Below are positions 3,977 through 49,254 of a stretch of 64,000 bases of DNA, one piece after another. Position 1 is the stretch's first letter; every line of letters starts with the position of its first letter. This stretch comes from Gloeobacterales cyanobacterium (GTDB lineage: Bacteria > Cyanobacteriota > Cyanobacteriia > Gloeobacterales > PMM-0068), in the NCBI GenBank assembly GCA_038245785.1, contig JBBRSB010000025.1, forward strand, positions 1 to 64,000, read 5' to 3'. The notes under the pieces are model-generated. The model saw only the letters and a program-made list of their open reading frames with translations. It searched no databases and was not told the origin of the DNA. The position numbers were made by a program, and so were the translations under genes.

Positions 3977-4192
3977 GATATTCACGCAATTCAAAGTATT
4001 TCTCTACACATGCAACTTTATAAAGTCTTCATCAAATTTCCCTTACTTCATGTCAGCATAACCACACGAGAAAGAGTTAACCAGGAATGGTTACGCTTCG
4101 TCTGATCTACAGATATAGTTGTTTTAGCACTCTTGGCAATTGAGTGCCAAGTCAACTTAATCCGTCAACATTTCCTAGAAAGAGCTATAGCT

Positions 4193-12847: not shown

Positions 12848-13484
12848 AAGCTTGGCTCAAGAGTGAAGTCTTACACCATGAAAGTCATTGTAATCGCTTC
12901 ATATAAGGTACTCAAATCAACAACCCAATCGCAGCAAGCTGCGGGGTATGCGCAGTCGTTTCTAGATCAAAAAGAACTGGGAAGGTAGCTCTTCTAGCCG
13001 ATTTTAAGTGTGAATCAAAGATAAGAAAAAGAGCAAAATAAAGTGTAAGCGTCCACAGAATTTAAACTATGCAAACCCATTTAAAGTATTTCTCTATACA
13101 TGGAAATTCATCAAATCTTTATAAAAACAGTATTCGCAACATGCTAACTTTACCGACTACCTATATCTAAGCTCCACACGATTTCGGAAGGTTGAAATTT
13201 AGCTCCTCCATAAGATTTTCACTTGTTCATTTCGTAATCAAACTTCAGAATTTTTATTTAAACCGAGCGATTAGAAAATACACTTCATCTCATTAACCGT
13301 ACACAAAGGAGATCACTAGATTACCAGACCCATTTTAAGGTATTCTATCCACATCTATCAGACACTGATGCACTTCAAATTTGAATCGGTGGCTGCTCGA
13401 TAGGTTGCTGGTTCAGATGGCTGATCACGGTTCAAATTTGCTCGATTCAGTATTTTGCGTCCGATATTCAAAGTTGATTTTAGA

Positions 13485-19300: not shown

Positions 19301-21211
19301 GGGAACCCGCCCTGGATTAAGGTGGAGTGGCAGGAAGGTGGAGTGCTGGCTGACTATAACCCTATGGTGGAACTACGAAATCTCTCGGCCAGTAAGTTAG
19401 CAGAAACGCGAGAAAGTCTGTTTGGGAATTATCCAGGGTTGAGAGCGGCTTATCTGAGTGAATTTGAAGAAGCAGACGGGACGCAGAATTTTTTAAATGC
19501 GGTGCAGAATTATCCTCTGCTGAAAGGCATTCAGACGAATTTATTTAAATGCTTTTTACCTCAGGCGTGGAGCTTTACGAAACCGGAAGGAGTGTCGGGA
19601 TTTCTCCATCCTGAAGGTGTATATGATGACCCAAATGGTGGGCTACTGCGGCGAGAACTTTATTCCCGCTTGCGAGATCATTTCCAGTTTCAAAATCAGC
19701 TCATTCTTTTCCCAATCGGTCATAGGGTTAAATACAGCTTGAATATCTATGGAAGTCAGCAATCGCCCTACTTCAAGACTATTGCAAATCTATTTACGCC
19801 AAAGACGGTCTCAGAGTGCGATGAACATAATGGCACGGGGGAGGTTGGCGGTATTAAAGATGAGTTGAACAATTGGAACTTCAATGGTCATCAACAGCGA
19901 ATTATAGAGGTTTCTTTAGCTGAGCTAGACCTATTTGCAAAACTCTACGACGAAGATGGGACAGCAGCAGATGAGGCTCGTTTACCTACGCTGCATTCAA
20001 GAAATCTGGTCAATGTATTACGAAAATTCGGTATTCAAGAGCAACGTCTTGGAAATCTGGAAGGGCAATATTTAGCACTTGAAATGTGGCATGAAACTAA
20101 TACCCAGAAAGATGGAACGATTCGACGCGATACTCAATTTCCAGCATTGGCAACCGACCTAATTCTCTCTGGCCCCCATTTTTATGTTGGGACTCCCGTT
20201 TACAAAACGCCCCGTAATGTCTGTACAGAAAAAGGTCATTACGACATCCTTGACCTCACCACCCTATCTGACGACTACCTGCCCCGTACTAACTACGTCC
20301 CTGACTGCGATCGCACTGAATACCGCCGCCGCACCCCAAAAGTCCCTTGGGGCGATAATCAACCCGTCACAGACTTTTATCGTTTGGTTTGTCGTAGGCA
20401 GTTGAGTCAATCAGGAGAAAGAACTCTAATTCCAACAATTGCACCGAAAGGTTCTGCTCACATTCATCCAGTTATTTCAACAACCTTCCAAGACCAGAGT
20501 GCTTTGATAGCTTTTTGCGCTTTTTGCAGTTCAGTTATCTACGACTTTTATATCAAAACGACAGGTAAAGGAGATCTTTACGAGTCAACTTTGCGGTTAT
20601 TGCCATTACCAGAAGCTAACCCAGCGATTCGCCATCGTACCCTTGTCCTTAACTGTCTCACGACCTACTATGCCGATCTTTGGGTGGCCTGCTTTGATCC
20701 CACTTTTACTATTGACTGCTGGAGTAAACCTAACGATCCGCGTCTTGACCATGGCTTCTTCACTAAACTCACTCCCACCTGGCAGCGTAACTGTGCCCTC
20801 CGCAATGACTATGCCCGTCGCCAAGCCCTCGTCGAAATCGATGTCCTCGTTGCAATGGCTCTCGGCCTTACCCTCGACGAATTAATCACCCTCTACCGCA
20901 TCCAATTCCCCGTCATGCAGCAGTACGAGAGGGAAACCTTCTACGACCAGACCGGACGCATCGTGTTCACGACCAGTAAGGGACTCGTTGGGGTCGGGGT
21001 TTCCCGTAAGGGCAACGCCAAACAAGGCATCATCGGCTGGGAAGACATTCAAGATATGACCAACGGCGAAGCCTCCATCCCTATCACTGATGACACTCTT
21101 CCTGGTGGCCCCATCGAACGCACCATCACCTACCAAGCCCCTTTTGATAAATGCGATCGAGTGGCCGATTATCGAACTGCCTGGGCCTACTTTGAGAATT
21201 TGTCAGATTGA
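16352..21211 (+). CDS. Large N6-adenine DNA methyltransferase (DrmMI/Eco57I-like)
   Basis: SYYTP, CEPAMGSAAFL and GFDLMVGNPPW motifs; TAATG coupling to the SNF2 gene. Confidence 0.92.
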   Translation: MALVGIANENEFYSAHYLDAILKEDLKGVAKHWQEATTAEKTPDQLLGSLRQCYFRLRDRLGRTKEPDENLALQREFFQSVLEILGYQWKPKLIVLQDDGLLPIVAEVSRSNEIPLLWILEGFNGTDEPSDVLSLTLDPVQFPQGATGDVSVSEGIAAIQGQTLEEILSDRVFAEDNPPRWVILLSVDQIVLVDRHKWSASRLLRFDLQELLREKDSDALLAAAKLLHREHTCPAEGSSLLDELDEKSHRHTYSVSEDLKFALREAIELLGNEALYYRRTVSKLRVFSTDVQLERGEREIDPNQLKVECLRWVYRLLFVFYIEARPELGYAPLKSDVYREGYSLESLRDLEQAELLTSVDENGNFIDASIRRLFKLLWEGYPSESSMQLDLQSSKETAIHNTFRLPALKSHLFDPARTAMLNGVKFRNTTLRRVLELMSLSRGEGKQRRGRISYAQLGVNQLGEVYEGLLSLSAFLAEEDLYEVQAVKQTTEATSDLDENIEVSKKSKKQNNHNELKVGYFVTASQLNEYEPEEWVLDPKTKKPRKHEKGKFLFRLKGRDRQKSASYYTPQSLTECLVKYALKELLQDKTADDILKLTVCEPAMGSAAFLNEVVDQLADAYLERKQDELEERIPHERITIEKQKVKMLLADRNVFGIDKNPIAMELAEVSLWLNSIYGDPDNPSRVFVPWFGLQLNCGNSLIGARRQVYRLKNVTGGNKGVAKWHEFAPERVPLGQALPEDGIFHFLLGDPGMANYADKVVKAMQPEAIKLIQEWQKEFAKAELTKEQAEYVLRLSRRIEDLWESYARELAQIRQRTTDPLTVWGQDRDGGKGDFVSRDDTPLEQKDKIYEQEKLSKGVQNAGAYRRLKLVMDYWCALWFWPIAEAEELPSREQFLQEVGAILGETEMLAPAIQQLVCFPETQAVEKGTLFLNTWGYVDLEKLKRFYPRLSLVEKLGEQHRFFHWELEFADLFLENGGFDLMVGNPPWIKVEWQEGGVLADYNPMVELRNLSASKLAETRESLFGNYPGLRAAYLSEFEEADGTQNFLNAVQNYPLLKGIQTNLFKCFLPQAWSFTKPEGVSGFLHPEGVYDDPNGGLLRRELYSRLRDHFQFQNQLILFPIGHRVKYSLNIYGSQQSPYFKTIANLFTPKTVSECDEHNGTGEVGGIKDELNNWNFNGHQQRIIEVSLAELDLFAKLYDEDGTAADEARLPTLHSRNLVNVLRKFGIQEQRLGNLEGQYLALEMWHETNTQKDGTIRRDTQFPALATDLILSGPHFYVGTPVYKTPRNVCTEKGHYDILDLTTLSDDYLPRTNYVPDCDRTEYRRRTPKVPWGDNQPVTDFYRLVCRRQLSQSGERTLIPTIAPKGSAHIHPVISTTFQDQSALIAFCAFCSSVIYDFYIKTTGKGDLYESTLRLLPLPEANPAIRHRTLVLNCLTTYYADLWVACFDPTFTIDCWSKPNDPRLDHGFFTKLTPTWQRNCALRNDYARRQALVEIDVLVAMALGLTLDELITLYRIQFPVMQQYERETFYDQTGRIVFTTSKGLVGVGVSRKGNAKQGIIGWEDIQDMTNGEASIPITDDTLPGGPIERTITYQAPFDKCDRVADYRTAWAYFENLSD

Positions 21212-21250
21212 GGGCATAGATAGAATTTCACACCCTAGAAGCATTCCACC

Positions 21251-21427
21251 ATGACTTACTCGAACACCGACTACAAACACATCCAAATCGACGACAACTG
21301 CGTTCCCATCATTGAAGGAACCACCATGAAAGTTGCAGAACTGCTTACCTCTCATCTGACCTATGGCTGGAGTCCCGAAGAACTATATCAACTAAGTGCT
21401 GTATCTCTCCCTATAATCCTGTGGTGA
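21251..21427 (+). pseudogene. Truncated DUF433-family antitoxin fragment
   Basis: HIQIDDNCVPIIEGTTMKVAELL..LTYGWSPEEL, then the sequence diverges and stops at 58 aa. Confidence 0.65.
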
Positions 21428-21431
21428 ACCT

Positions 21432-24400
21432 ATGATTCCATCCGTCGTCGCCACTGAACTGCGTAATTGCATTTCCGACTATTTGCGGACTACCTTCCGG
21501 CCCACCACGCCAGGGTTCGATAGCCTGATGGAGCGATTCATAGCAGTTCCGAGCAATGTGGGACGTGGCCCCTACGTTTCCATTGGTCTGCCCTTTCGTA
21601 CTGGAACGATGGGCACCAACTACTTCCGTCACATTCCGATGGAGTTTGCTCCGCACCTGCATCAGGAACGAGCCTTCGACCGCCTCAGTCCTCCCTATTA
21701 CCAATCAACGCTGATTGCCACCGGAACAGGCTCCGGTAAAACCGAATGTTTTCTGTTGCCCCTCCTAGAGCATTGCCGCTTAAACATTGGAGAACCTGGC
21801 ATCAAGGCGATTCTCATCTATCCCATGAATGCCCTCGCCACCGACCAATCTAAACGCATTGCCGACCTTATCCATAACACCCCTGCTCTCCAAGGCAAAG
21901 TCACTGCCGGACTCTATGTGGGCGATAGCGACGCAACCCCGACCACGATGATGACCGCAGAAAAAGTCATCACCGAAAAGCGCATCATCCGCGAATCGCC
22001 CCCCGATATCTTGATCACCAACTACAAAATGCTGGACTACCTGCTCATCCAGCCTGACGCTCAAAAACTGTGGCGCTATAACCAACCCGAAACCCTGCGC
22101 TACATCGTTGTAGACGAATTCCACACCTTCGACGGTGCTCAAGGAACCGATCTCGCCTGCCTGCTCCGTCGCCTCAAATATAGGCTCAACACTCCGCCCC
22201 ATCATCTTGCTTGCATCGGTACCTCCGCCACCCTAGGGGGCGAAGATAGCCGCAAAGATATGTTGAGTTACGCTGCCACCATCTTTCAAGAACAACTGGA
22301 TGATGGAGTACTGATAGAAGAAGACCGTCAGACCGCCGCAGAGTTTTTGCAAGACGCCTTGCTCAATATCCTGCCCGTCCCAGACCCTGAAACCATCGCT
22401 CAACTCCAACCAAATGCACACCAGACTCCAGAGGCGTATCTGCGCACTCAAGCGCGACTGTGGCTGCAAGACAATGCGCCACAAGAAGAGAACCCTGCCC
22501 TGAGCCTTAGCGCGAACACTGCCCAGCAAAGTTTAGAAATTGCCCCCTCCCTGCAACAACTCGATCTGTCAGCCCCGAATTTGGACGCACCCCTCACAAA
22601 CGAATGGCGAGTGCGACTGGGACTAGAACTGAAAACCCTACCGATCATCCAAATCTTAGTCCGAACGCTAAGGAACAGACCCCACAGCTATGACGAACTG
22701 ACTGAAACCCTTCGTCGTCGTCTGCATTTCCCGAAGTGCGATCGCCCAGAATACCTGCCCCTACTCCTGGATAGCCTCCTAGCGCTGGTTGCTACCGCAA
22801 AACGGCTAGATACCCGACCGGATGGCAAGAACCTCTATTTGCCTTGGGTGACCCTGCGCGTCCAGATTTGGCTAAAAGAGCTAAGACGGATGGTCGCTAC
22901 CGTAGAGCCTCAACCTCGGCTCCTGTTCTCAAACGACCTTACCCCAGAACAAGCAAAGAAAACTCTCCCCGTCGTTCACTGTCGAGACTGCGGTGCCACC
23001 GGATGGGCTGGGGTGCGTCCTGCCCAGGGCACTCAAAAATTAACCCCTAATGACCTGAAACGCTTTTATCAAGAATTTTTTGGTCGCAAACCGCTTATCA
23101 CCTTCTTATTCCCCAGCGATGCCAAGAACTCCGATACCCTTAAACTTTGCCCCGAATGCTTCGCCATCAATGGCCCAGGTGCCGAAGACTGTCAATCCTG
23201 CGGTTGGTCTGAACTCATTTCCGTCTATATTCCTAACTCCACGCGCACCAATACCCAACAAGAGCAAAAACAACTTGAATCCCATAGCGATTGCCCCTTC
23301 TGCGGCAGTAGTAGCGGCTTGTCGATCTTGGGGGCGCAGGCTGCCAGCCTCACCAGCGCAATGATTGGAGTGTTATACACAACCCCCTTTAACTCGGATA
23401 AAAAACTTCTCACCTTCTCCGATTCTGTCCAAGATGCAGCCCACCGTGCGGGATTCTTTGGCGCACGAACCTACAGAACCACCTTACGCACCGCCATCGC
23501 TCATACCGTCAGGACAGCTGCATCCGAAGGTCTTACCCTGCAAACTCTTGTAGAGCAGTTTTCAAGCTTTTGGCAGCAAAAGCTTGGTTCAAACGCAGAT
23601 TATGTCGCCACATTTTTACCTACTGATCTGGAATGGTTACGAGATTGGGACGAATTTGTCCGTAGCGATCGCACCGAACTAGACCCGCATAGTAAGCTGC
23701 CAAAACTGCTGGATGACCGACTTACTTGGGAAATCGTCGCTCAATTCGGTCATCGTTCCGCTATTGGCCCTTCTCTTGAACGGAGCGGCACCTGCACTGT
23801 CAGCTTTGACCCTGCCCAACTTAAACAGGCGATTGATGACCTTCACCCCAAACTCGTCAATGAAGTAGAACCTCTGCGCCAAGTTCAACCGGATCGGGTG
23901 CGCCAATTTCTTTTTGGTTTGCTGCACCACTTGCGTCAGCGGGGCGGCATCCTCCAGGCTGCCACGCAGAGCTACATCAGTCAGGGCGGGATTACGTACC
24001 TCTTACAAAAACCCCTGTTCATGCCTCGCATGGGACCAAGGATTCCAGCCCCTATCTTTTGGGTTAACGCCTCGGCCCAGAGCGATCGCTTCGAGAAAGT
24101 AATTCAAACGGGACCACGCAGAAGTTGGTGCGAAGACTGGACAGCACGAATTTTTGCTTCAGCGAGTCTCCTGCTCAATGATCAAGTCATCGACGTGCTG
24201 CATATGTCCCTCGATGCGATGGAGAATGCTGGACTGCTAGAAAGCCTACCTTGCGGCAATGGTAAAGCCTGGGGTATCCCCATGTCGTCTCTATGGATAG
24301 AGCTGGAAGGGACCATTCTCGCCTGTGATCGCTGTTCCCATCAGTTGACTGCAAGCATCACAGAGCATTCAAGTCTTGAGGGGATGGCCTGTCTAAATCT

Positions 24401-27400
24401 GGGTTGCATCGGACACTACCGCCCTAACTCTCGTATCGGACTAGCCTACTACCGAAATCTTTATCGAAGCGGCGATGTTCGACGCATTATGGCCGCAGAG
24501 CATACGGGACTTCTCACACGGGAAAATCGAGAACGCTTGGAGCAACGGTTTATCGACGGCAATCGTCGCTGCGACCCCAATCTGCTATCTGCTACCTCCA
24601 CCTTGGAAATGGGTATAAACATTGGTGATCTGTCCTCGGTGCTGCTGTGTTCCGTTCCACCTGGACCCGCCAACTTCCAGCAGCGCATCGGTAGGGCAGG
24701 GCGAAAGGATGGCAATTCCTTTGTCGGGACGATTGCCAATGGAAAACCTCACGATCTTTATTTCTATGAAGATCCGATGCAAATGATTGCTGGGAGCGTT
24801 GATGCGGCTGGATGTTATTTAGATGCTTCAGCCATCCTAGAGCGGCAATTAACCGCATTTTGTCTGGATAACTGGGTCTCAACCCATATGTCAACACAGG
24901 ATTTTCCCAGAGCGCTCCAGGATGTGCTGAATGCGATCGAGCGCAGAGACATGAGCCGCTTCCCTTATAACTGGCTGCACTTTATCCAAGAGCGTCAGGG
25001 AGCATTGCTAGAAGCGTTTCTTAAACTTTTCCAGGACGCTATTGAAGATAGAACCGTCAACCAGCTTCGTACCTTTATGGAACGAGGAGAACAAGACGAG
25101 GGAGGACTTCGCTGGCGAATTTTAGATCGACTAGATGGAGTTCGACAGGAACGAACCCGGCTCAGCAGTCAGATTAAGAACATCACGGGCAAAATCAAAA
25201 AAATTAAGGAAGAACCTCCTGCGCTCCAAGATCCTGAGCGCCTTGACGAACTGGATCGTGAGCGGTCTAGCTTTAGACAACTGATGCGCGAGATTAACGA
25301 TAAACATATCCTCAACTTTCTGACCGATGAGGGGCTTTTACCAAACTATGCTTTCCCAGAGTCAGGCGTAACGCTGCGCTCAATTCTGTGGCGAAAGCGT
25401 CAACAAGTTGAAAAATCCGGTGGCAGCAGTTACGAAACGTTCACGCTAACCTACGAGCGACCAGGGGCACTAGCCATCAGAGAATTAGTGCCAAGCGGCG
25501 TATTCTATGCAGAAGGACGACGGGTAACAATCGATCAAATTGACCTGAAACTGTCCGAACCCGAAGATTGGCGGATGTGTCGCAGTTGTAGCTATACCGT
25601 CCGAACCACGCAGCCCGAAGCCAATGCTCCATCTTGCCCAAGGTGCGGAGATTCTATGTGGCGCGATCAGGGTCGTGTCAGACGGATGTTGCGCCTGCGC
25701 CAGGTGATGGCATCTACTTCCGACAAAGGCAGCCGTTTTGGAGATGATCGGGAAGACCGCAACACAGGCTTTTTTCAGCGGCATTTGCTGGTGGATTTTG
25801 AAGCCAAGGATCGTGAAAAGACCTTTCTGATTCAGGACAAAGAATTTCCCTTTGGTATTGAGTACATTTCTCGAACCAATTTTCGGGAGGTCAATTTAGG
25901 GGAGTCGTTGTCTACGGGTGAATCCGTTGAGCTATCAGGGCAGCGTTTTACAACACGAGGATTTCGAGTCTGTAAAAGCTGCGGCAAAGTCATGAAAGGG
26001 AATGAACCCAAGGATCATGCTATCAACTGCCAATGGCGAGATAAACCCGACCAGGCAAAGGCAGAAGAGGTGTTATACCTCTACCGGGAGTTCGCCTCTG
26101 AAGCCATTCGGATATTGATGCCCGATGAAAATTTTTGGACCCCTCAAGGGCTACATTCCTTCGTAGCGGCACTACAACTGGGCTTGAAGCAAAAATTTCG
26201 GGGCAAAGTGGATCACCTTCATGTCACGATTTCCGGTGACCCTCAGGCTAATTCAAACCTCCGAAAGTCCTATTTGTATCTGTATGACAGTGTGCCAGGG
26301 GGGACAGGCTACTTGCGACAGCTTATCCGCAACCCCGACGAATTGCTGGATGTTTTTAACCGTGCCCTATTGGTGTTGAGAGCCTGCGGCTGTGAAGACG
26401 GCTGCTATAAATGCCTGTTAGCCTATCGCAACAGCTTTGACCAAGATGAAACCAGTCGCCAAACGGCGGTTAGGCTGCTCGCGCAGCTTGTAAAACACTG
26501 GCCTCAGCTAAAGGAAACTTCAGAAGGGCTATCGGCCATTCGACTCAATAGCAACTTTGAAAGCGAACTAGAACGAAGGTTTATCGAAGCCATTCGACGC
26601 TACAGCGGGGAGGTGTACCAAGGTTCAACTCCGCTGTTACGCAAAGACATCATCAATGGGAAGGCGGGATATTACCTAAAAATTGGCGAAGCAGCCTGGT
26701 TTATTGAAACCCAGGTTAACCTGAACCAGAATGACGGAGTCCAAATCCCATCCAGAGCCGATTTTCTCTTCAGACCAGCATCTACCCGTTCTTCGAGTCA
26801 CCCGATCGCCATTTTTACGGATGGCTGGGAATACCATCAGGATAGGATTTTTGAAGATTTCAAGCAGCGTTTAGCCATTGTGCGAAGCGGTCAATTCTGG
26901 AGCTGGTCTTTGACTTGGGACGACGTTGAAAAGCAACTGAACCCAGATAGCCTCATCAATCGTCCTGAGGGACTAAAGTGCCAACTCAATTCTCAGTTCA
27001 ACAGGAACAGCCATCAAGTTTACCAACAGTATCAGTGCGATGGAATGCGCGACTTAGAGCCTCGCAGCAGCTTTGAATGGCTTATGAGCTTTCTGGCTCA
27101 GCCCGATCTCAAACAATGGCAAAACTGGGCACTTTTGAGAACTATGGCGCAAGCCCATGCTCAATCCCTCCAAGACAGTGCCATCCAGAAGCAGTGGCAA
27201 GGCCAGGTGGTTCAGGTGCTGGGCGAGGAGCCTATTGATGTGTGGGAGCCATCTTCAAGATTTTTGAACACTGAAGTTCAGGTTTCGGCAGAGCTGAAGA
27301 TCTGGAGCGGTGCAGATGTAATCCGTCATAAGAATTTGGAACAAACTGGTAGCTTTGTTTTGCTAAGTCTTGACGACCGGAAACAGTCTGACTCCTCATC

Positions 27401-27851
27401 GTTTCGCGGTAGTTGGGTAGAGAGTTTAAGGCTGTTTAACCTCTATCAATTTCTTCCCCATTTTTATCCTGTCACGACATCCATGGTGGATAAGGGGTAC
27501 AGCCCTGCCTTGGCTCGTCCAGACACCGCCACGCTGTCGGCAGTTCCCACCTATCAAGAGGCTCCATGGAAGGAACTGCGGGAACTAACGGGAGTGGACA
27601 ATTTGCTACCGGCCATCGACCGTATGGAAAAAGAGAAATGGCCAGTTCCAGAGCCGGGGTATGAACTGATGGGTAAGCGCGGAGCAGTCGTAGCAACCGC
27701 AGAGCTTGCTTGGCAAACTTTTAGAGTCGCTGTAACCCTCACGCAAGAGGATCTAGATGAATTTACAAACGAAGGTTGGACCGTGATCGACTGCGAAGAA
27801 CTTTGGTCGTCAATGGACATCCTTGGCAAGAAACTGAAGGGAGAAGCATAA
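21432..27851 (+). CDS. Giant DEAD/DEAH helicase with Zn ribbons, DUF1998 and a PD-(D/E)XK-like nuclease domain
   Basis: TGTGSGKTE, VVDEFH and QRIGRAGR; many CxxC pairs; YDSVPGGTGY..CGCEDGCYKCL; RADFLF..IFTDGWEYH. Confidence 0.9.
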   Translation: MIPSVVATELRNCISDYLRTTFRPTTPGFDSLMERFIAVPSNVGRGPYVSIGLPFRTGTMGTNYFRHIPMEFAPHLHQERAFDRLSPPYYQSTLIATGTGSGKTECFLLPLLEHCRLNIGEPGIKAILIYPMNALATDQSKRIADLIHNTPALQGKVTAGLYVGDSDATPTTMMTAEKVITEKRIIRESPPDILITNYKMLDYLLIQPDAQKLWRYNQPETLRYIVVDEFHTFDGAQGTDLACLLRRLKYRLNTPPHHLACIGTSATLGGEDSRKDMLSYAATIFQEQLDDGVLIEEDRQTAAEFLQDALLNILPVPDPETIAQLQPNAHQTPEAYLRTQARLWLQDNAPQEENPALSLSANTAQQSLEIAPSLQQLDLSAPNLDAPLTNEWRVRLGLELKTLPIIQILVRTLRNRPHSYDELTETLRRRLHFPKCDRPEYLPLLLDSLLALVATAKRLDTRPDGKNLYLPWVTLRVQIWLKELRRMVATVEPQPRLLFSNDLTPEQAKKTLPVVHCRDCGATGWAGVRPAQGTQKLTPNDLKRFYQEFFGRKPLITFLFPSDAKNSDTLKLCPECFAINGPGAEDCQSCGWSELISVYIPNSTRTNTQQEQKQLESHSDCPFCGSSSGLSILGAQAASLTSAMIGVLYTTPFNSDKKLLTFSDSVQDAAHRAGFFGARTYRTTLRTAIAHTVRTAASEGLTLQTLVEQFSSFWQQKLGSNADYVATFLPTDLEWLRDWDEFVRSDRTELDPHSKLPKLLDDRLTWEIVAQFGHRSAIGPSLERSGTCTVSFDPAQLKQAIDDLHPKLVNEVEPLRQVQPDRVRQFLFGLLHHLRQRGGILQAATQSYISQGGITYLLQKPLFMPRMGPRIPAPIFWVNASAQSDRFEKVIQTGPRRSWCEDWTARIFASASLLLNDQVIDVLHMSLDAMENAGLLESLPCGNGKAWGIPMSSLWIELEGTILACDRCSHQLTASITEHSSLEGMACLNLGCIGHYRPNSRIGLAYYRNLYRSGDVRRIMAAEHTGLLTRENRERLEQRFIDGNRRCDPNLLSATSTLEMGINIGDLSSVLLCSVPPGPANFQQRIGRAGRKDGNSFVGTIANGKPHDLYFYEDPMQMIAGSVDAAGCYLDASAILERQLTAFCLDNWVSTHMSTQDFPRALQDVLNAIERRDMSRFPYNWLHFIQERQGALLEAFLKLFQDAIEDRTVNQLRTFMERGEQDEGGLRWRILDRLDGVRQERTRLSSQIKNITGKIKKIKEEPPALQDPERLDELDRERSSFRQLMREINDKHILNFLTDEGLLPNYAFPESGVTLRSILWRKRQQVEKSGGSSYETFTLTYERPGALAIRELVPSGVFYAEGRRVTIDQIDLKLSEPEDWRMCRSCSYTVRTTQPEANAPSCPRCGDSMWRDQGRVRRMLRLRQVMASTSDKGSRFGDDREDRNTGFFQRHLLVDFEAKDREKTFLIQDKEFPFGIEYISRTNFREVNLGESLSTGESVELSGQRFTTRGFRVCKSCGKVMKGNEPKDHAINCQWRDKPDQAKAEEVLYLYREFASEAIRILMPDENFWTPQGLHSFVAALQLGLKQKFRGKVDHLHVTISGDPQANSNLRKSYLYLYDSVPGGTGYLRQLIRNPDELLDVFNRALLVLRACGCEDGCYKCLLAYRNSFDQDETSRQTAVRLLAQLVKHWPQLKETSEGLSAIRLNSNFESELERRFIEAIRRYSGEVYQGSTPLLRKDIINGKAGYYLKIGEAAWFIETQVNLNQNDGVQIPSRADFLFRPASTRSSSHPIAIFTDGWEYHQDRIFEDFKQRLAIVRSGQFWSWSLTWDDVEKQLNPDSLINRPEGLKCQLNSQFNRNSHQVYQQYQCDGMRDLEPRSSFEWLMSFLAQPDLKQWQNWALLRTMAQAHAQSLQDSAIQKQWQGQVVQVLGEEPIDVWEPSSRFLNTEVQVSAELKIWSGADVIRHKNLEQTGSFVLLSLDDRKQSDSSSFRGSWVESLRLFNLYQFLPHFYPVTTSMVDKGYSPALARPDTATLSAVPTYQEAPWKELRELTGVDNLLPAIDRMEKEKWPVPEPGYELMGKRGAVVATAELAWQTFRVAVTLTQEDLDEFTNEGWTVIDCEELWSSMDILGKKLKGEA

Positions 27852-30002
27852 ATGAGTTTAGAGAACACATTCCGCCTAGCCATCTCGGATGAATTCTTTG
27901 ATGCCTACAGTCGATTACCTCGAAATGCACAAGGCAAGGTATCGGAATTCATTAACCGCTTTCGGCAAGATCCAACCCGACCAGGGCTTAATTACGAATC
28001 GATTCGCGATGGTCAAGACAAACGAATCAAGTCGGTGAGGGTTGACCAAGCGCATCGGGCTATCCTTCTTAAACCTGATACAGGCAACGTTTACATACTG
28101 CTTTGGGTAGATAAGCACGATGATGCGTACACTTGGGCACGGCGTAAGAAATGCCTTGTTAACCAAGTTTCTGGTGCGTTACAAATTATTGATATTGAGG
28201 CTGCCGAAGCAACTACAGAGCAACTCATCCAAAAAAATACTGGAGAATCGGAAAAGCGCTTTGACACTATTGAAGATAAGTATTTGATGCTACTTGGTGT
28301 TCCTGAAATATTGCTTCCTGCTGTTCGTCAAATTGTAACAGATGAAGATTTAGAGCAGTTACTCCCCCATTTGCCTAGAGAAGCAAGTGATGCATTGCTC
28401 ATGTTGGCAGTTGGCTATGAACTTGAAGAAGTCTTAAAACAGCAGCAAAAGACAGACGAGAAGGTAAAGGTTGATCCTGAAGATCTTGAAACGGCTCTAG
28501 AAAATGATGATAGCCGTAGCCGATTCGTTGTGATTACGGATGATGCAGATTTAGAAGAAATGCTTGCGGCTCCCTTAGAAAAGTGGCGTGTGTTTCTGCA
28601 TCCTTCTCAGCGGAAGCTAGTTGAACGGGATTGGAATGGTCCGGTTAGAGTTTTAGGCGGAGCAGGAACCGGAAAGACGGTTGTGGCGATGCATCGTGCA
28701 AAGTGGTTAGCCCAAAATCGTTTCACAGAACCGAGCGATCGCATTTTGTTCACCACCTTCACCCGTAATTTAGCCATCGATATTGAGGCTAATCTCAAGG
28801 CCATTTGTTCTCCTGAATTGATTCGTCGTATTCGTGTCATCAATCTAGACGCATGGGTTGCAGAGTTCCTTAGACAAGAAGGAGTTGAGGTTCGAATTGT
28901 TTATGAGGAAGAGACTCAAGAAATTTGGCAACAGGCTTATACTCTGGCCCCTGTCGAGCTTGGGTTTTCACAAAGCTTTTATCAGCAGGAATGGCATGAG
29001 ATTGTCTCCGAACAAAACTGTCAAACTTTGCGCGACTATCTTGTAGCTCGACGGACCGGTCGTGGGACTAGATTGAGCCGTCAGCAAAGACAATTGATTT
29101 GGCCAGTTTTTGAGGAATTTAGGAATCTGTTGCGAGAAAAAGGTTTCAGAGAACCAGACGGTGCAATGCGTGATGCAGCCGAACTATTAGCAGATAGAGG
29201 AACCGAAACACTGCCCTATAAATCCATCATCGTAGATGAAGCTCAAGATATGAGCGAAGCGGCTTTCTCGCTTCTTCGGGCAATTGTAGGTGAGCCTAAG
29301 AAAAATGATTTGTTTATTGTTGGAGATGCCCATCAGCGGATTTATGGAAGAGTAGCGATTCTAAGTCGATGTGGGATCGATGTTCGAGGAGGTCGTTCTC
29401 GAAAACTTCGCTTAAACTATCGAACAACTGATGAAATCAGGCGCTGGGCCACAGCCGTGCTAGAAGGCGTAGATGTAGACGATTTGGATGGTGGAGCAGA
29501 TTCTCTAAAAGATTATCGTTCCTTAATGCATGGTGAAGAACCAACATTAAGCGGCTTTAGTAGATTTGAGGATGAAATTTCTTACTTGAGGAAATTTCTG
29601 GAACAGATAAAGGTCAATGAAAATACCCTTTCAGGCGTTTGTCTTGCAGTTAGAACAAATGCTCTAGTGGATCAATATGAATCAGCACTCAAAAATATTG
29701 GCATTGCTGTTCGACGGCTCCAGAGAGATAAGCCTGATAACCCGTTGGACGAGGGCTTAAGACTTGCAACTATGCATCGAGTTAAAGGTTTGCAGTTTAA
29801 CTACATTCTATTACCTGGACTGAATGCTGATATTCTGCCTTTAGAGTCCGTCTTCAACCAAAATGAAGACAAAGTAACTCAAACTCGTTTTGTCGATGGA
29901 GAGAGATGTCTTTTGCACGTTGCTGCAACACGCGCTAAGAAACAAGTCTTTATTAGTTTCTATGGAGAACCAAGTTTATTCTTGAAATACCCAAATCGTT
30001 AA
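27852..30002 (+). CDS. UvrD-like SF1 helicase with an N-terminal RelE-like domain
   Basis: GGAGTGKT, VDEAQD, VGDAHQRIY, NYRT and TRAK motifs; N-terminus SVRVDQAHRAIL..HDDAY. Confidence 0.88.
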   Translation: MSLENTFRLAISDEFFDAYSRLPRNAQGKVSEFINRFRQDPTRPGLNYESIRDGQDKRIKSVRVDQAHRAILLKPDTGNVYILLWVDKHDDAYTWARRKKCLVNQVSGALQIIDIEAAEATTEQLIQKNTGESEKRFDTIEDKYLMLLGVPEILLPAVRQIVTDEDLEQLLPHLPREASDALLMLAVGYELEEVLKQQQKTDEKVKVDPEDLETALENDDSRSRFVVITDDADLEEMLAAPLEKWRVFLHPSQRKLVERDWNGPVRVLGGAGTGKTVVAMHRAKWLAQNRFTEPSDRILFTTFTRNLAIDIEANLKAICSPELIRRIRVINLDAWVAEFLRQEGVEVRIVYEEETQEIWQQAYTLAPVELGFSQSFYQQEWHEIVSEQNCQTLRDYLVARRTGRGTRLSRQQRQLIWPVFEEFRNLLREKGFREPDGAMRDAAELLADRGTETLPYKSIIVDEAQDMSEAAFSLLRAIVGEPKKNDLFIVGDAHQRIYGRVAILSRCGIDVRGGRSRKLRLNYRTTDEIRRWATAVLEGVDVDDLDGGADSLKDYRSLMHGEEPTLSGFSRFEDEISYLRKFLEQIKVNENTLSGVCLAVRTNALVDQYESALKNIGIAVRRLQRDKPDNPLDEGLRLATMHRVKGLQFNYILLPGLNADILPLESVFNQNEDKVTQTRFVDGERCLLHVAATRAKKQVFISFYGEPSLFLKYPNR

Positions 30003-30513
30003 TGTGCCGAAGCTTTCGCTATCCGCCTATCGGCATTTCCGCAAAGGCGGGCATCCACCCAAAACTGGGTGAGTAATGCCTTCGATAGGAATTTTTCCAG
30101 TTTTCCATTCGACAAGATGTCTGAGTAGCAAAGCATTGCATAGATGGTCTAAAAATTTCTGTTCGGGCTTCATCATATGAGATTTTTAGCTAAGAGCTCT
30201 TAGGTTGTAAATCATCAATTATCCGCTAGAGGATGTAATGAGATTACAGCCTTTCCAGTTCGGATGAAGTACCTCAGAAATGAGGTTGCATAAGGCTTTT
30301 TACTTTGCCCAATGTACCTCAAACGGCTAAGAACCGCTATTTAGAATAATTTTCTCAGTGGCAGTATGCGTAAAAAGTGTTTACCTGGTATGCTGTGCAG
30401 GTGATTAGACTGACTTCATTTAGCCTAATTTCCCCTAATTGGATGGTCGTGTAGAGAAAGTCAGTCTGATAAATAGTTGGACGACGGCCGTCGAATTACT
30501 CTTGAGAGCGAGC

Positions 30514-31302
30514 ATGGCAAACAATGATGTGATCAACGCCTATGTCTATGTGAGCACTGGCTTCCATTTGCGAGCACTATTGTATGCGCAAACTACGGAA
30601 TGCCGATGGGTAATCAAGAACATTGAAGATGCGATTGCAGAACTTGACACGCTCGGTTTAACTTATCCACGCAACCAATCCAAGGCAGTCTGCGATAAGC
30701 TCGAATCCCTTGCCCGCAGTAGCGGCGAGATGACGAAAACTCCTGATCACATTGCAAATGAGCTTCATTCAATAGTGGACTGCATTCATGACACTGTGAA
30801 AAGTCAGGCCAGAGAACAAAGGCTTGTCCTGCTTCAGTCCACATCTGTTTCTGAGAAGCTTCGAGAGCTGGCAAAGAAAGGCACCCTGAACACTCGGCAA
30901 ATCTATCTATTCGATGAAGCTGTATCGAATTTAGAAACAGGTGCCTATCGGTCCGCAATCGTAATGGGCTGGAACCTCGCTTACGATGTTATCAGGCAAT
31001 GGATCTTCGACGACTCAGCACGACTCGCGAGTTTCAATACTGAAATTCTAAAGATTCTGGATAAGTCAGGGAAGTCAAAGTTTGACCCGATTACCAATTA
31101 CACGGACTTTTACGATATCGGGGAAAGGATTGTCCTAGATGTGTGTGAGAGTGCAAACTTCATCGGAGGCAACCTGCATGACGATTTGCGAAACTATCTA
31201 AGGCAACGTAACAGTTACGCGCACGCTTCAGATTCTAATCCCACGGTGAATCAGGCAAACGCTTTGATTGATCATTTGGTCGATGCCATCGCAAAGCTAT
31301 AG
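30514..31302 (+). CDS. Putative HEPN-domain protein
   Basis: EAVSNLETGAYRSAIVMGW helix and an RNSYAH (Rx4H) motif near the C-terminus. Confidence 0.6.
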   Translation: MANNDVINAYVYVSTGFHLRALLYAQTTECRWVIKNIEDAIAELDTLGLTYPRNQSKAVCDKLESLARSSGEMTKTPDHIANELHSIVDCIHDTVKSQAREQRLVLLQSTSVSEKLRELAKKGTLNTRQIYLFDEAVSNLETGAYRSAIVMGWNLAYDVIRQWIFDDSARLASFNTEILKILDKSGKSKFDPITNYTDFYDIGERIVLDVCESANFIGGNLHDDLRNYLRQRNSYAHASDSNPTVNQANALIDHLVDAIAKL

Positions 31303-31538
31303 CGAATGGTAAATCAACGCCTAACCAGCCGTGAAACTGTGTAAAAACTTAAAACGCTTCGCTCAGTGGCTTCGGGCGGCAATGTATTCAGTGACCTTAA
31401 GCTCAGCTTAGAGTAAACCTATTATCAAAGCGTTTTACGACCGACTCAGAGCAGCCGGAAAACCGATGCAAGTAGCCAGATGTACTGCCTACAGCGATCA
31501 AATGTCGTGCTTACTTACTGCATTACTGCATTACTCAA

Positions 31539-43226: not shown

Positions 43227-43475
43227 AGCTTGTCTGTTTAGGAGTTTCAGGCAGTTGAGGCTTTCTGGGAGTGATAATTTTGGAGGTGACACGCCATCCA
43301 AAATCGTGTGATTCACAGCAGAATTTACAGTTAAAAACTCAATATAAAGCTGAATTATATCGGATATTTGTCGGAGAAATTGGAGACCGGACCAAGGTAA
43401 ATAGTTGGTTATGAGAAGCGGTATTCTCAACACTATCTGCTAATATTATGCACAACTGTTCATATTTTATTTTCA

Positions 43476-44432
43476 ATGAGTATTTCTACTCAAATCCAAT
43501 ACATTCCCGCTCGTAAAGCTTCTTTGGATCTGCTCCAAGATGTTTCCCTAAACAGGCATCCCGTTGTCGTTTATCTGGCTCGTCTATCCCCTGGTTCCGT
43601 CCGGACCATGCTCGGTGCCCTGAATACGATGGCCGAAATCCTCAGTTCTGGTCGTCACCATGCCCTTACCCTTGATTGGTCTCAGATTACCCACCATGAA
43701 ACAGACCTCCTAGCCAGCCAATTGAGACTCCGATACGCACCCGCTACCGTCAATAAATTCCAGGCCGCGCTCAAGGGTTGCTTAAAACAATACTGGCGGT
43801 CTGGAATGATAACGGACCAGCAATATCATCGGGCCGTTGATGTTCCTTCTGCCCGTGGCACAAGTCCCCCCAAAGGACGAGCCCTTAGAGAGGAAGAAAT
43901 CCAGACCCTCTTTGCCTATTGCGCTGGGGATACCCCCTGTCAAATCCGCGACCGTGCACTCCTCGCTATCCTCTACGGAGGGGGTCTGCGTCGGGCTGAA
44001 GCTGCTGCTGCGATGGTGGAAGATTATGACCTTGTGACCGGAGCCCTCAAAATAATGCATGGGAAGGGGGACAAATACCGGATGGTCTACCTTGCAGGGA
44101 ACCTTCATCTCAGTCTAGTTCGCTGGTTAGACCTGCGCAGTCCTATCCCAGGCCCTCTGTTGCTGAGAGTAAAAGGGGGTCAGGTTCTGCCCTATCCGAT
44201 AACCCCCCAAGCTATTTTGAAGATTCTCCAAAGATTGGCTGAAAAAACTGAAGTAGACAGTTTCTCCCCCCATGATTTGAGGCGGACTTTCATTACCGAA
44301 TTGATTGCCCGAGGAGGGGATCTGTTCTCTGTCCAGGGCCTCGCGGGACATGCCGACGTTAAAACTACAGCACGCTATGACCGAAGGGGAGAAGAAGCTA
44401 AGCGGAAGACCGCAGCGCTCCTCGATGTATAA
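43476..44432 (+). CDS. Tyrosine recombinase (XerC/D-like, not IntI)
   Basis: RDRALLAILYGGGLRRAE, GKGDK, HDLRRTF and AGHADVKTTARY catalytic motifs. Confidence 0.95.
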   Translation: MSISTQIQYIPARKASLDLLQDVSLNRHPVVVYLARLSPGSVRTMLGALNTMAEILSSGRHHALTLDWSQITHHETDLLASQLRLRYAPATVNKFQAALKGCLKQYWRSGMITDQQYHRAVDVPSARGTSPPKGRALREEEIQTLFAYCAGDTPCQIRDRALLAILYGGGLRRAEAAAAMVEDYDLVTGALKIMHGKGDKYRMVYLAGNLHLSLVRWLDLRSPIPGPLLLRVKGGQVLPYPITPQAILKILQRLAEKTEVDSFSPHDLRRTFITELIARGGDLFSVQGLAGHADVKTTARYDRRGEEAKRKTAALLDV

Positions 44433-44697
44433 AGGGCTAAAGATAGCGTTGATAACGGTAAATTGAGTTTCCATGCCCCAGACCTAGCTGTATTGCTAGC
44501 CGAGCATACACTGAGTATATTTACCCGATTTGATTACGCGAACGCCTAGATAAATTGTATCGAACTACACATACGTTTCTAGTTTGTCTCCAGTACCGTA
44601 TACCTAGTTTTCTCAATATTAATTACATAAATACCTGTCTGTGCTGTCTATCCTTACAACTCGAGTGATATTTTCCCCTTGGAGATATCCAGAAGCT

Positions 44698-44716
44698 GTC
44701 TAATCACTGGTTAGGC
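44698..44716 (+). other. attI-like site
   Basis: GTCTAAT-CACTG-GTTAGGC: L box, 5-bp spacer and GTTRRRY, the same geometry as attI1. Confidence 0.6.
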
Positions 44717-44828
44717 TAGAGAAATGTTCAGGTGCCTCGTGAAATTCATCGTAATTCACAGATATTCCGATGACCTAAATTCGATTCCGTAGCTACCTTG
44801 TCGATTCTTTCTTATAGTGAGACTAACA

Positions 44829-45617
44829 ATGGCAAATCCAAATGTAGCGTTCTATGTGACAGCCCATCAGGACGACTGGCAGTTCTTCCGTGGCGAACAG
44901 GCTTACCAAGACTTGACTACAGGCGACACGAGGATAGTTTTCATCTACACGACTGCCGGCGACGACAAGATGCTTCCTGGCTGGTGGGAGGCCAGAGAGA
45001 AAGGGGCCATTGCTTCGATTCGCAAAGCGATTCCAGCAGCACCCTTATTGTTCAATACGGCGGACATTAACGGACACCGAATCGCAAAATTTAGCTGCGG
45101 CAACAGCGTCAGTTATTGTCTTCGCCTTCCAGACAATGATGCCCCCAACTCCCTTGAGAACTTAAGGGCGGGAGTTATTAGCTCACTCCGTTCTGTCGAC
45201 GATTCAGCGGTCTACAGAGACTGGGAGGACTTTGTATTTACACTCAAAGCAATCCTGGCCATTGAAACACTGGGAGGGAACAACGCTCATCCGTGGGTTA
45301 ATGCACCCGATTACAACGCCACAAGAAATCCCGGCGACCACGCTGACCACAAGGCAACCGCAGACGCCCTACAAACGTTCGTCTCAGAATTTTACAACCG
45401 AGCTTGGTGGGCAACGTATGATACCAGCAATAGGTCGCCCAATCTGTCGGGATCTCGTCTGGCTCAGAAGCGTGCAATGTTTGATGCCTACTCGAACGAG
45501 GTACTCTCCCAGACGACCGCAAATGGTGTTCCACACAGTCCCAATGAAACCGAATGGAATTGGTGGGGAGATAAGAGTTACGTTACGCTCAGAGCTTTTA
45601 ATACTGATGATGATTAA
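44829..45617 (+). CDS. PIG-L/LmbE-family deacetylase (cassette 1)
   Basis: TAHQDD, YTTAGD, RLPD and DHADH motifs. Confidence 0.85.
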   Translation: MANPNVAFYVTAHQDDWQFFRGEQAYQDLTTGDTRIVFIYTTAGDDKMLPGWWEAREKGAIASIRKAIPAAPLLFNTADINGHRIAKFSCGNSVSYCLRLPDNDAPNSLENLRAGVISSLRSVDDSAVYRDWEDFVFTLKAILAIETLGGNNAHPWVNAPDYNATRNPGDHADHKATADALQTFVSEFYNRAWWATYDTSNRSPNLSGSRLAQKRAMFDAYSNEVLSQTTANGVPHSPNETEWNWWGDKSYVTLRAFNTDDD

Positions 45618-45715
45618 TCGCGACTTAGGCAATTTTGCCGGTGGATAGACAAACAGAGCCGTAGCCGTTGGGGTGCGGAACGAACCCCGCAATTTCCAAC
45701 CAACAAAACAAACTG

Positions 45716-45784
45716 GCCTAACAAACCGTTCGAGCGGACGCGGGCGATAAAGTCGCCCGCGTCCGCTCAACGCTGGCGTTAGAC
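45716..45784 (+). other. attC site 1
   Basis: R'' GCCTAAC, L'' GTTCGAGC (extra base), perfect 11-bp central stem, L' GCTCAAC, R' GTTAGAC. Confidence 0.92.
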
Positions 45785-45885
45785 CGCCTAAGGTGCCTGT
45801 AAGGACTTAGCCAAAGGATATTTGTGGAGTGCTCGGTTCAAGTCACGAAGTTATAGAATTACCATCATTATGGCTGGGAAAAATT

Positions 45886-47229
45886 ATGGCTGGGAAAAAG
45901 CTCCTGCACTTTATTAGCAAAGTGGCCACTTTTCTGTTTGCTTTGCTATTTACTTTAAATTACTTGAGTTCTAACGCTCAGGCTCAGGTTAGTGATGCAG
46001 ACCTAATTCAACTACGCTCAAGTATTCATTCATGGGCTAGGGATTTTGTTTGCGAGGGTATTACACCTACCAAAAAACCCAGCAACTGCCCAGACAAAGG
46101 CGGCCCAGATAACGGTGGTTCTGAGGTTGGCGACTCAATATTATTTAGCTCACTCCTTTGCTACAGCGTTGAAAACTGGGCATGCCAAAATATTCCTGCA
46201 TCTAAGGATGAGCAAGGTGGTATGTGGAGATCACCGCAGAGACTACGTAGTCGGAGCGATGGAAGCTGGGGTAATGCCCGCTTTTCACAAGACCACATGA
46301 TAGGTGTTTTGTTATATCTGGTGACTGAGTACAACAGAGGAAATGTTGAGTCGGCTCGATCCTTCGCCAATCACTGGGGATCTTGGATGGCTAATCATCT
46401 TTCACAAGGTGAGTTCTCTCTGTGTGATTGGGATTGGACTGACCTAGAGGCGATGGATTCATGTGCTTTGGAGGGCGACATTTTTGGTGCTCGTGCCGCG
46501 ATGATTCGGCGAGTCTTCGACCATATTGGAGCCAATTCGCCTGAAAGGCGTTGGCGAGTTGGTGGAATTATTCCAACTTGGAGATCATATCGTCTCGGTG
46601 ATAGACGTGATCCTCATGATTATCTTGGTTATCTAAATAATATTTGTGCTTTGGCTCCAAGCAGGGGTAAGAAATTTAATTGTCACTTGCCGAGTGTCAC
46701 TTCTTTGATCTTTCAAGAAATGGGAGATAACCAGAGGTTAGGGAGTATAGATGAAGGATTTAGAGAAAATCCATTTGTCTTGTGGGTAAACAACGGTCGG
46801 CAAGCAAACAATCAAATTCGTAAGCTCACGTTAGATCGCTGTACAGTTGCTGATGCAGCTCATAGAAGTGGAAGTAATACACACCAACAATGGGCTTGGG
46901 AACGTTCTCAATTTGAAGCCACACCGCCTTGGAGAAACTCCTTCGGTTGGGATTGTGTTACGATGATTAATTTGCTAAAGCCAAACCCCTCAGTACGAGC
47001 ACATCAAGTTATCGGTAATAGTGGCTGGACTGGGTCTATTGCTGTTGATGATGGATATGTTTACCTGGCAACAAGTGAAGGACAGTTGAGAAGGGGTAGA
47101 ATTTCCTCTTCAGTTGTAACTGAACTAATTGGCAATGGTGGCTGGATTGGGTCTATTGCTGTTGATGATGGATATGTTTACCTGGCAACAAGTGAAGGAC
47201 GGTTGCTGCGTGGGCGTGTTAATCCCTAA
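45886..47229 (+). CDS. Secreted Cys/Trp-rich hypothetical protein with two C-terminal beta-propeller-like repeats (cassette 2)
   Basis: Signal peptide ending AQA; duplicated IGNxGWxGSIAVDDGYVYLATSEGxLxRGR. Confidence 0.7.
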   Translation: MAGKKLLHFISKVATFLFALLFTLNYLSSNAQAQVSDADLIQLRSSIHSWARDFVCEGITPTKKPSNCPDKGGPDNGGSEVGDSILFSSLLCYSVENWACQNIPASKDEQGGMWRSPQRLRSRSDGSWGNARFSQDHMIGVLLYLVTEYNRGNVESARSFANHWGSWMANHLSQGEFSLCDWDWTDLEAMDSCALEGDIFGARAAMIRRVFDHIGANSPERRWRVGGIIPTWRSYRLGDRRDPHDYLGYLNNICALAPSRGKKFNCHLPSVTSLIFQEMGDNQRLGSIDEGFRENPFVLWVNNGRQANNQIRKLTLDRCTVADAAHRSGSNTHQQWAWERSQFEATPPWRNSFGWDCVTMINLLKPNPSVRAHQVIGNSGWTGSIAVDDGYVYLATSEGQLRRGRISSSVVTELIGNGGWIGSIAVDDGYVYLATSEGRLLRGRVNP

Positions 47230-47362
47230 AAGTGTTTAGGATCGCAAACAAAATAACATCCTCATTTCAAAACCTAAATATGTTGCGGTGGGCGAAGTTC
47301 GTCGTAACGTATTTGGGTTTTATTTAATTTGTGATCCTTACAGCAATTACTAGTCGTGTGCG

Positions 47363-47437
47363 GTCTAACAACCTGGCTGGAGCGGACTGTTGAGGGATAT
47401 TGGTGTTACTTGCAGCCGCTCAGCCAGAACGTTAGCC
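47363..47437 (+). other. attC site 2
   Basis: R'' GTCTAAC, L'' GCTGGAGC, L' GCTCAGC, R' GTTAGCC. Confidence 0.85.
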
Positions 47438-47557
47438 GCTACGCCTCTATCCGTCTTTCTGCTTCGTTTTGAGTCTTTTTGGTTGACTCGTTTGTAGATT
47501 TTACATAAGGGCACCTCGAAAAATTGATTTGACTCCCAAAATCGATGGCTGAAAGGG

Positions 47558-47983
47558 GTTGTAAGCCCAAACCGGCGGAATTTGTCCAGCTCACCAAAAG
47601 TCAGGCTTTTGAACTGCCCCCTGCTTGTGCAGTTCGCCGACCATCTGAGCACCACTATGCACTCCACGGATTGATGATGGCGACGCCGGACGCTTCGAAG
47701 GGGGCCGCGTGATGCCACGATGAAGCCCCGCGAGGCTGCAATTGCGGCGATGTACCCATCAGGCGTTGGGAAGCCTCGCCCGCTAGTCTTGGCCATCACG
47801 ACCAGCTCGGCATAGCGCCGTGCTGCACTGGTGTCGAATGGCAGCACCTGCACTTCCTTGGACACTAAGCATTCCGCGACAAACGGAGACCGATTGATTT
47901 GGAAGCTATTTTGGCTGAGATTGACTGGGAGTAGCTAACGATTTGGCCTGTTTGGACGAATTCCGCCGGTTTGGGCTTACAAC
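47558..47983. mobile_element. IS-derived remnant bounded by 31-bp inverted repeats
   Basis: GTTGTAAGCCCAAACCGGCGGAATTTGTCCA at 47558-47588, inverted copy (1 mismatch) at 47953-47983. Confidence 0.65.
47655..47850 (-). pseudogene. VapC/PIN toxin fragment, frameshifted
   Basis: VLPFDTSAARRYAEL..DGYIAAIAASRGFIVASR, then APFEASGVAIINPW in another frame. Confidence 0.8.
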
Positions 47984-48311
47984 GCCGGCTACCACCAATA
48001 AACACATCAACGCCCTCCGTGGGTGCCTGAAAGAATGCTGGAAAATGGATCTTATCGACACGAAGGATTATCACAAGGCCATCGATCTGAAGAGAGTCCG
48101 TGCCACCACCTTGCCCAAAGGACGAGCACTTGCACATGAGGGGATTACTGCTCTATTGGTCGTTTGTGATGGCGATGAACCTTTCCAGGTGCGGGATAGC
48201 GCACTACTTGCATTACTTTATGGTTGTGGGTTGCGTCGGGCAGAAGTTGTTGCTATCCAAGTGGAGCACTACAGTCCTGTCACGCTGACACTCAGCTCAC
48301 CCAGAAGATGA
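47984..48311 (+). pseudogene. Internal fragment of a paralogous tyrosine recombinase
   Basis: PATTNKHINALRGCLKE..PKGRAL..RDSALLALLYGCGLRRAE, similar to 43476-44432. Confidence 0.85.
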
Positions 48312-48932: not shown

Positions 48933-49254
48933 ATTCTCGTCATGAACGGCTACAATCATGCACAATTGTTCATATCTATACTCCATGAGTATTTCTACTC
49001 AGTTAGCTGCCCCTGACCTCTTCATTGAATTGACTAGTTGCATAAGTTTTAGCTATCAGTCCTGAAAACCCACGGACTATATGCGCGTAGTTGCATAGGT
49101 CGTGGCAAAAGTGAGAATGTCGCCCTTGAAATGACAACCATCATCACCCTCAATGCCCTCCTCTATAATCTTTAGAGTTAATTGTAACAACCCATCTATT
49201 GACATAGATGTTTTATCTTATCGCCTATACCCCGTACCTGATATGCTCTTAGGC

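Follow-up and report, generated by a model that had tools for sequence, protein, structure and literature searches.

The window analyzed here is a stretch of 64,000 nt, positions 1 to 64,000 of contig JBBRSB010000025.1 in assembly GCA_038245785.1 from a Gloeobacterales cyanobacterium (PMM-0068), and it carries on the forward strand an integron-type cassette array downstream of a gene for a tyrosine recombinase. Below, C-numbers designate contigs of this genome (G000), C25 being that of the window; G003 and G091 are two other cyanobacterial genomes, and L-numbers are comparison loci. The locus begins with a palindromic site (43405 to 43436) upstream of the gene for a 318-residue Xer-like recombinase (43476 to 44432), beyond which an attI platform (44631 to 44716) leads into two cassettes. 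The first (44711 to 45778) combines an open reading frame (ORF; 44829 to 45617) for a PIG-L/LmbE-like predicted zinc deacetylase with the site attC1 (45716 to 45784), and the second (45779 to 47431) combines an ORF (45886 to 47229) for a predicted secreted or membrane-anchored protein with attC2 (47363 to 47437). A sequence-only reading had pointed out the attI-like site, the two attC sites, and the genes in just this arrangement, and all of these parts were confirmed in place.

The attC sites were evaluated with a covariance model (R1) of 23 aligned attC sites, none of them in the window (11 came from this genome and 12 from G003), on which the canonical structure was imposed; in this structure, 93.8% of the cells are paired, with 62 double changes. 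In a search of the whole 64 kb with filters off, attC1 (69 bp) scored 50.1 bits (E value of 2.8e-10) and attC2 (75 bp) 45.5 bits (3.7e-9), whereas the runners-up were the opposite strands of the same two sites (16.0 and 14.3 bits), followed by a single 30-nt match of 12.4 bits. Thus, an independent model places both sites far above everything else in the window, which bears out their identification as attC. Both display R'' and R' boxes with complementary AAC/GTT, L boxes, and extrahelical bases and fold into the attC hairpin on the bottom strand (−32.0 kcal/mol for attC1), with only the G bulge in attC1 and two bulges in attC2. Pattern-based attC scans, which missed sites or gave false ones, were superseded by R1, and an Rfam search of the window returned nothing at the gathering thresholds. 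Across the genome, R1 recovered at least 29 distinct attC sites at E values of ≤0.01 on 13 contigs (150 of 741 candidates were scored, and 11 of the sites belong to the training set).

The cassettes, too, have the expected organization, with one ORF per attC and a leading GTTRRRY. In both, as had been claimed, the leading 7-mer is the exact complement of the R'' box of the cassette's own attC. In the comparison arrays, the same holds for 28 of 33 cassettes against 10% under random pairing, while the downstream hybrid site is complementary in only 4 of 33; this complementarity is hence an ordinary cassette signature, with a chance of about 1% of arising by accident in two cassettes. The likely starts of the two genes, at 44829 (262 aa) and 45886 (447 aa), are those of database proteins matching at 100%. 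The assignment of the first gene to PIG-L has evidence on both sides: its Pfam score is below the cut-off (24.1 versus 28.2), but most of its homologues carry PF02585, and the HxDD and DHxDH motifs are present in its sequence. We therefore regard its product as a predicted PIG-L-like deacetylase. The second protein belongs to a rare family (15 matches, including itself) and is predicted to contain an alpha/alpha-barrel-like domain, with two repeats at the C terminus. Its structure model (predicted local distance difference test score of 78.8) weakly resembles barrels of the GH76/GH8 type, with a best Z score of 10.5 and a root mean square deviation of 4.7 over 263 residues; it found no Foldseek match at E values of ≤0.001 and nothing at 0.9 or above in the ESM Atlas. 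We predict a secreted or membrane-anchored protein with a weak likeness to alpha/alpha-barrel glycoside hydrolases. Neither cassette protein matched PHROGs, and a scan for promoters and terminators gave no excess over shuffles. Of the sequencing runs listed, one contained this DNA and may be its source, and none was of RNA; the contigs of this run contained no cassette-excision joint, although such contigs cannot show its absence.

The site heading the array, which had been described as an attI-like GTCTAAT-5bp-GTTAGGC, proved to be attI. It has an L box (44698 to 44704), a 5-nt spacer, and an R box with the crossover G|TT at 44710/44711 at the head of the first cassette, and it lies inside an 84-bp module (44631 to 44714) with further copies in the same genome on C38 (93% identity) and C5 (85%), each of which heads its own cassettes and attC sites. 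Another 11 copies were found in 4 of 13 other genomes of the order, where they adjoin genes such as polA, rpsL, and ssb (identified by reading ORFs), while a search over 401 genomes of the phylum gave two weak non-self matches only. The left end of the module aligns, on the opposite strand, with the bases that directly precede the start codon in an intact gene for a long-form integron integrase (intI) in G003. Several copies run on into 10 to 40 codons of the long-form intI; in the window module, this homology ends at the start codon. This attI core also stands at the head of the arrays next to long-form intI in G003 (C1, ~155 to 157 kb; intact intI and four scored attC sites) and in G091 (C1, ~1,945 kb). 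In both of these integrons, the motif consists of two tandem units, and the window may keep only the second; whether there were originally one or two units, sequence homology places the window attI among the sites of IntI integrons. As a separate origin, we considered excision of an attI circle by IntI, which would be marked by a G|TT junction at the left end of the module. The copies, read by eye, have differing left breakpoints and no such junction, leaving this origin unsupported. Profiles for three attI families detected about 31 loci in this genome, some of them halves of sites split by insertion sequences (IS). Orphan attI platforms in the genome, that of the window included, number about 30. 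We found no published description of multiple orphan attI sites, within an incomplete coverage of the literature. Two further observations concern C25. A second orphan attI of the short-form IntI family (30381 to 30482) heads an ORF (30514 to 31302), downstream of which there is an R''-like box (31319 to 31325) and no complete attC. Further, the 66 bp to the left of the module (44565 to 44630) match, at 76%, a contig end (L117) beside an ndhH-like gene of a congeneric genome, suggesting that the shared unit may exceed 84 bp.

The genome encodes one intact integron integrase, a short-form IntI at C2:301-1263 (480 bits with TIGR02249; cut-off, 265), along with broken or remnant intI copies on C8, C52, C9, C3, C17, and C38. 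The long-form clade, to which the window attI points, is represented in this assembly by a remnant and no intact copy. That remnant (C38:22629-22745) is an internally deleted long-form intI, in which the last 24 codons directly follow the start region, about 700 bp to the left of a module copy. Copies of an IS110-like element are found inside attI platforms (C2:1-300, C52:1-211, the end of C9, C53, and C7:26060-27535), one of them upstream of the only intact intI. A cyanobacterial LexA motif had no match near the array or the intact intI. Integrons are common in cyanobacteria: intI scored above the cut-off in 80 of 251 sampled cyanobacterial genomes of the class.

The replicon itself is probably a plasmid, as suggested by the genes on C25 for ParA, SSB, and a DUF3854 protein and by another gene whose seven plasmid homologues are all cyanobacterial; the contig is unclosed. 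A profile search detected no IntI on C25, and hence there is no intI adjoining this attI as in a complete integron. Together with the homology of the module to long-form IntI integrons, this supports the earlier suggestion of an array that lost its intI and kept its attI.

The enzyme encoded next to the array is a tyrosine recombinase (PF00589) with intact catalytic motifs, and it lacks the IntI-specific insertion, as had been noted: an alignment with the genome's own IntI leaves a 34-column gap at this point, where IntIs have about 35 extra residues near patch III. Its score against TIGR02249 is 69 bits, far below the cut-off of 265, and in a tree of 45 proteins its family and the IntIs form separate branches (support, 100/99). 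The solved structures nearest to its catalytic domain are those of XerA and XerD. Like the XerCD/dif, XerA, and Cre/loxP systems, it combines such a domain with a single inverted repeat with a 6-bp spacer beside the gene and a plasmid location; unlike XerC, XerD, and XerA proper, it falls below the NCBIfam cut-offs (118.5/335, 102.2/330, and 101.3/220, respectively) and belongs to a separate family with its own arm consensus. Members of this family are 42 to 52% identical across many phyla (2,897 matches among 8,000 candidates scored). They occur in 281 plasmid records of PLSDB, nearly always singly (283 places), with the best matches being cyanobacterial. A viral contig set contained no relative, and a scan of metagenomes found only three loci, which are close orthologues.

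The palindrome upstream of the gene (43405 to 43436) is a 13-6-13 inverted repeat with the core GAGAA-N6-TTCTC, a geometry like that of dif and loxP, the double-stranded sites of tyrosine recombinases. Relative to an orthologue of 89% identity, the arms are kept and the 6-bp spacer is not. Among the 93 of 100 homologue loci with enough flank, the core AGAA-N6-TTCT occurs upstream of the gene in 36 and downstream in 2 (mean of 0.5 in shuffles), and spacers of 5, 7, and 8 give 1, 0, and 0 occurrences. With a weight matrix from 35 sites outside the window, of which the close orthologue contributed one, the arms lengthen to about 13 bp and mostly one copy is found per locus; the matrix's top score in the whole genome (25.6; the next is 21.9) falls on the window palindrome. 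Palindromes of this kind with a variable spacer are seen across the family (L021, L024 to L103, and L141 to L159). The motif is thus family conserved, and we consider it a likely target of the recombinase family, that is, a predicted dif- or lox-like double-stranded recombination site. As in resolvase-type systems, intact catalytic residues are accompanied by a single adjoining inverted-repeat core with a spacer in the range of 6 to 8 bp. We infer a role in the resolution of plasmid multimers, although integration at the palindrome would also be possible. Within the same incomplete literature coverage, we found no published description of a site or motif for this family or of a plasmid-resolvase role in cyanobacteria.

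An integrase of attC cassettes would be expected to co-localize with attC arrays, as the IntIs do, and the recombinase family does not. The homologue loci searched with R1 comprised the best 80 of 528 from genome contigs and 7 others, 842 kb in all, and an attC was detected at only 1 of these 87. This site, in L063, points towards the 3' end of the gene. In a matched test with flanks of up to 6 kb, attC sites at E values of ≤0.01 were present at none of 20 recombinase loci (from 21 non-self cyanobacterial homologues, one identical to L063 being left out) versus 15 of 20 intI loci, the latter being a nonrandom choice from 114 for high score and usable flanks. Combining the sets, which share five loci, gives 1 of 102 distinct homologue loci, some of which are kin and not independent. 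Conversely, no gene of the recombinase family was found in 19 loci around module copies (1.7 to 19 kb), and of the approximately 31 attI loci in the genome, only that of the window lies within 1.5 kb of a recombinase of this family. In L063, from a Gloeomargaritales genome, a long attC (6976 to 7152) and a Doc-like ORF, read from sequence, converge on the recombinase homologue.

Considering these observations jointly, we propose, with a probability of about 70%, that an integron remnant survives here on what is probably a plasmid: a true attI and two true cassettes remain, intI is missing, likely through deletion at its start codon, and the adjoining recombinase is an unrelated, likely bystander enzyme that probably uses the palindrome upstream of its gene to resolve plasmid multimers. 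The array is an attC site cluster without an integron integrase (CALIN) that has retained attI and sits beside a probable plasmid multimer resolvase. It has the defining features of a CALIN, namely, at least two attC sites within 4 kb and no intI nearby; PMC4889954 lists intI loss among the origins of CALINs and states that half are in replicons encoding IntI. As in the CALINs described there, two attC cassettes occur without a nearby intI in a genome with IntI elsewhere; unlike in those, a recognizable attI persists that is traceable to an IntI clade and is one of about 30 orphan platforms. The complete long-form integrons of G003 and G091 share with the window the attI core, the sequence upstream of the intI start, and the attC architecture; the window lacks intI and has a different recombinase, oriented like the array, 200 bp leftward of the module. 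In terms of history, a long-form IntI integron would once have occupied the locus, and at G|TT its canonical IntI would have integrated both cassettes in circular form, with the PIG-L-like cassette captured last. Thereafter, intI would have been lost at its start and the right end of the array cut by IS-like debris. The neighboring recombinase, for its part, would act on double-stranded DNA, binding both arms of its palindrome and exchanging strands over the 6-bp spacer.

Sequence comparison shows the right end of the array to be marked by such debris, with 34-bp inverted repeats around a PIN-domain fragment (47555 to 47986). At the inverted repeat begins a broken paralogue of the recombinase on the forward strand (47985 to 48284; residues 89 to 188, 54% identity). 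Farther on, the upstream region and first five codons of the recombinase gene are duplicated, without the palindrome (48933 to 49001).

Several points weigh against the above proposal. The contig is, as mentioned, unclosed, and its read depth of 64 is near that of the contig with the C38 copy (59). The exact palindrome core is missing from 57 of the 93 homologue loci within the 240 nt scanned. The left breakpoint of the window module has no readable remnant of intI; because of this, and because the module can be the second of two tandem units, the deletion of intI is only probable. Further, two of the three close orthologues (84 to 89% identity; L021 and L023, both from one metagenome, with the recombinase of L023 being a fragment) are followed, about 0.1 and 1.4 kb downstream, by an attI module. 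The neighborhood of attI and recombinase is therefore not pure chance in this lineage, and, with so small a sample, a link may exist. These modules belong to a different attI family from that of the window, native to short-form IntI, which leads us to favor a hot spot for accessory DNA within a single plasmid lineage.

A rival reading that retains some, though distinctly minor, plausibility is that of a distributed integron, in which the single host IntI serves the plasmid attI and some 30 other orphan attI sites in trans, allowing an integrase-free plasmid to capture, export, and spread cassettes. It is in keeping with the three attI families being set against one intact intI, with the two attI sites on C25, and with the intactness of both attC sites and both cassette genes. 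Moreover, the window attI and the probable cognate site of the host IntI have identical L boxes (their spacers differ, and the cognate site itself comes from an inferred join across IS110 at contig ends), and this identity keeps the reading at a low but appreciable probability. Against it, the module goes with the long-form IntIs, a separate clade with only a remnant in this genome, and the upstream boxes differ between the long-form and short-form attI families. According to PMC2095811, IntIs act on a wide variety of attC sites, but each is reported to be specific for its own attI. The host short-form IntI would therefore probably be able to excise both cassettes through attC recombination, while new capture at this noncognate attI would probably be inefficient. 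The earlier notion that the array relies on an integrase in trans thus stands insofar as an intact IntI exists elsewhere in the genome but falters on an attI type whose clade has no intact copy in the assembly. Were the distributed reading true, a plasmid would be borrowing a host enzyme across attI types thought to be integrase specific.

Much less probable is a reading in which the recombinase leaves attC alone and helps in moving or building up the platform in double-stranded form, by cointegration at the palindrome, with its downstream region acting as an attI hot spot. The attI modules downstream of two of three close orthologues could be so explained, as could the paralogue fragment and the gene-start duplicate flanking the other side of the array; but the contig has only one strong palindrome, the duplicate lacks it, just one of about 31 attI loci is near a recombinase, and the three orthologues come from a single metagenome. 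Fainter still are the prospects of the proposal in the sequence-only reading that the Xer-like enzyme serves attC cassettes as a new kind of integron integrase. The gene is co-oriented with the array, its stop codon lies 266 bp from the L box, its catalytic motifs are intact, and attI modules recur near two of the three close orthologues. Largely refuting this proposal are the true IntI in the genome, the attI native to IntI integrons, the enzyme's own palindrome and its distance from the IntI clade, the canonical G bulge retained in the attC sites, and the near absence of attC from homologue loci (an attC at 1 of 102, directed at the 3' end of the gene, compared with 15 of 20 intI loci). The first and the last of these are the very grounds on which the sequence-only reading had said its idea would fall. 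A comparable situation is recorded in PMC4889954, in which 50 of 18,808 non-IntI tyrosine recombinases were beside attC sites, 29 of them with IntI elsewhere in the replicon, and were judged to be non-IntI. Finally, insertion of the cassettes at a chance secondary site (attG) with a coincidental likeness to attI, as might be entertained from the account in 10.1101/2022.09.11.507474 of IntI inserting cassettes at GWT and of small CALINs perhaps so arising, and from the location of the window cassettes, like the attG insertions and single attC sites lacking integron integrases (SALINs) discussed there, away from any intI, is refuted by module homology, in that the insertion point is no bare GWT but a true attI within an 84-bp module whose copies (85 to 93%) head their own cassettes and are homologous to native attI regions.

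Elsewhere on C25, the region from 4133 to 8597 encodes an E2-E1-JAB fusion with a patatin phospholipase neighbor and a 404-aa ORF without a name, which resembles a defense operon of the cyclic-oligonucleotide-based antiphage signaling system (CBASS) type. A cluster of an SNF2 helicase, an Eco57I-like methyltransferase, a DEAD/MZB helicase, and UvrD (13455 to 30002) presumably resembles a restriction system or one like the defense island system associated with restriction-modification (DISARM). An Rhs locus extends from 49636 to the end of the window at 64000, and on to 66523 of the contig; among its several orphan C-terminal modules is one that contains a colicin E5-type ribonuclease domain. 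In the G091 array, a 714-aa Argonaute-like ORF, read from sequence, lies between attC sites (L177:2055-4199).

As most likely read, then, the locus is an integron remnant of the ordinary sort and clearly illustrates the mimicry of a new integrase by an adjacent tyrosine recombinase. An array whose attI is traceable to a specific lost IntI clade offers a direct test of the origin of CALINs and of the use of a noncognate attI in trans. At the same time, a recombinase family common on plasmids gains a predicted 13-6-13 target, which makes its function testable and provides candidate enzyme-site pairs.

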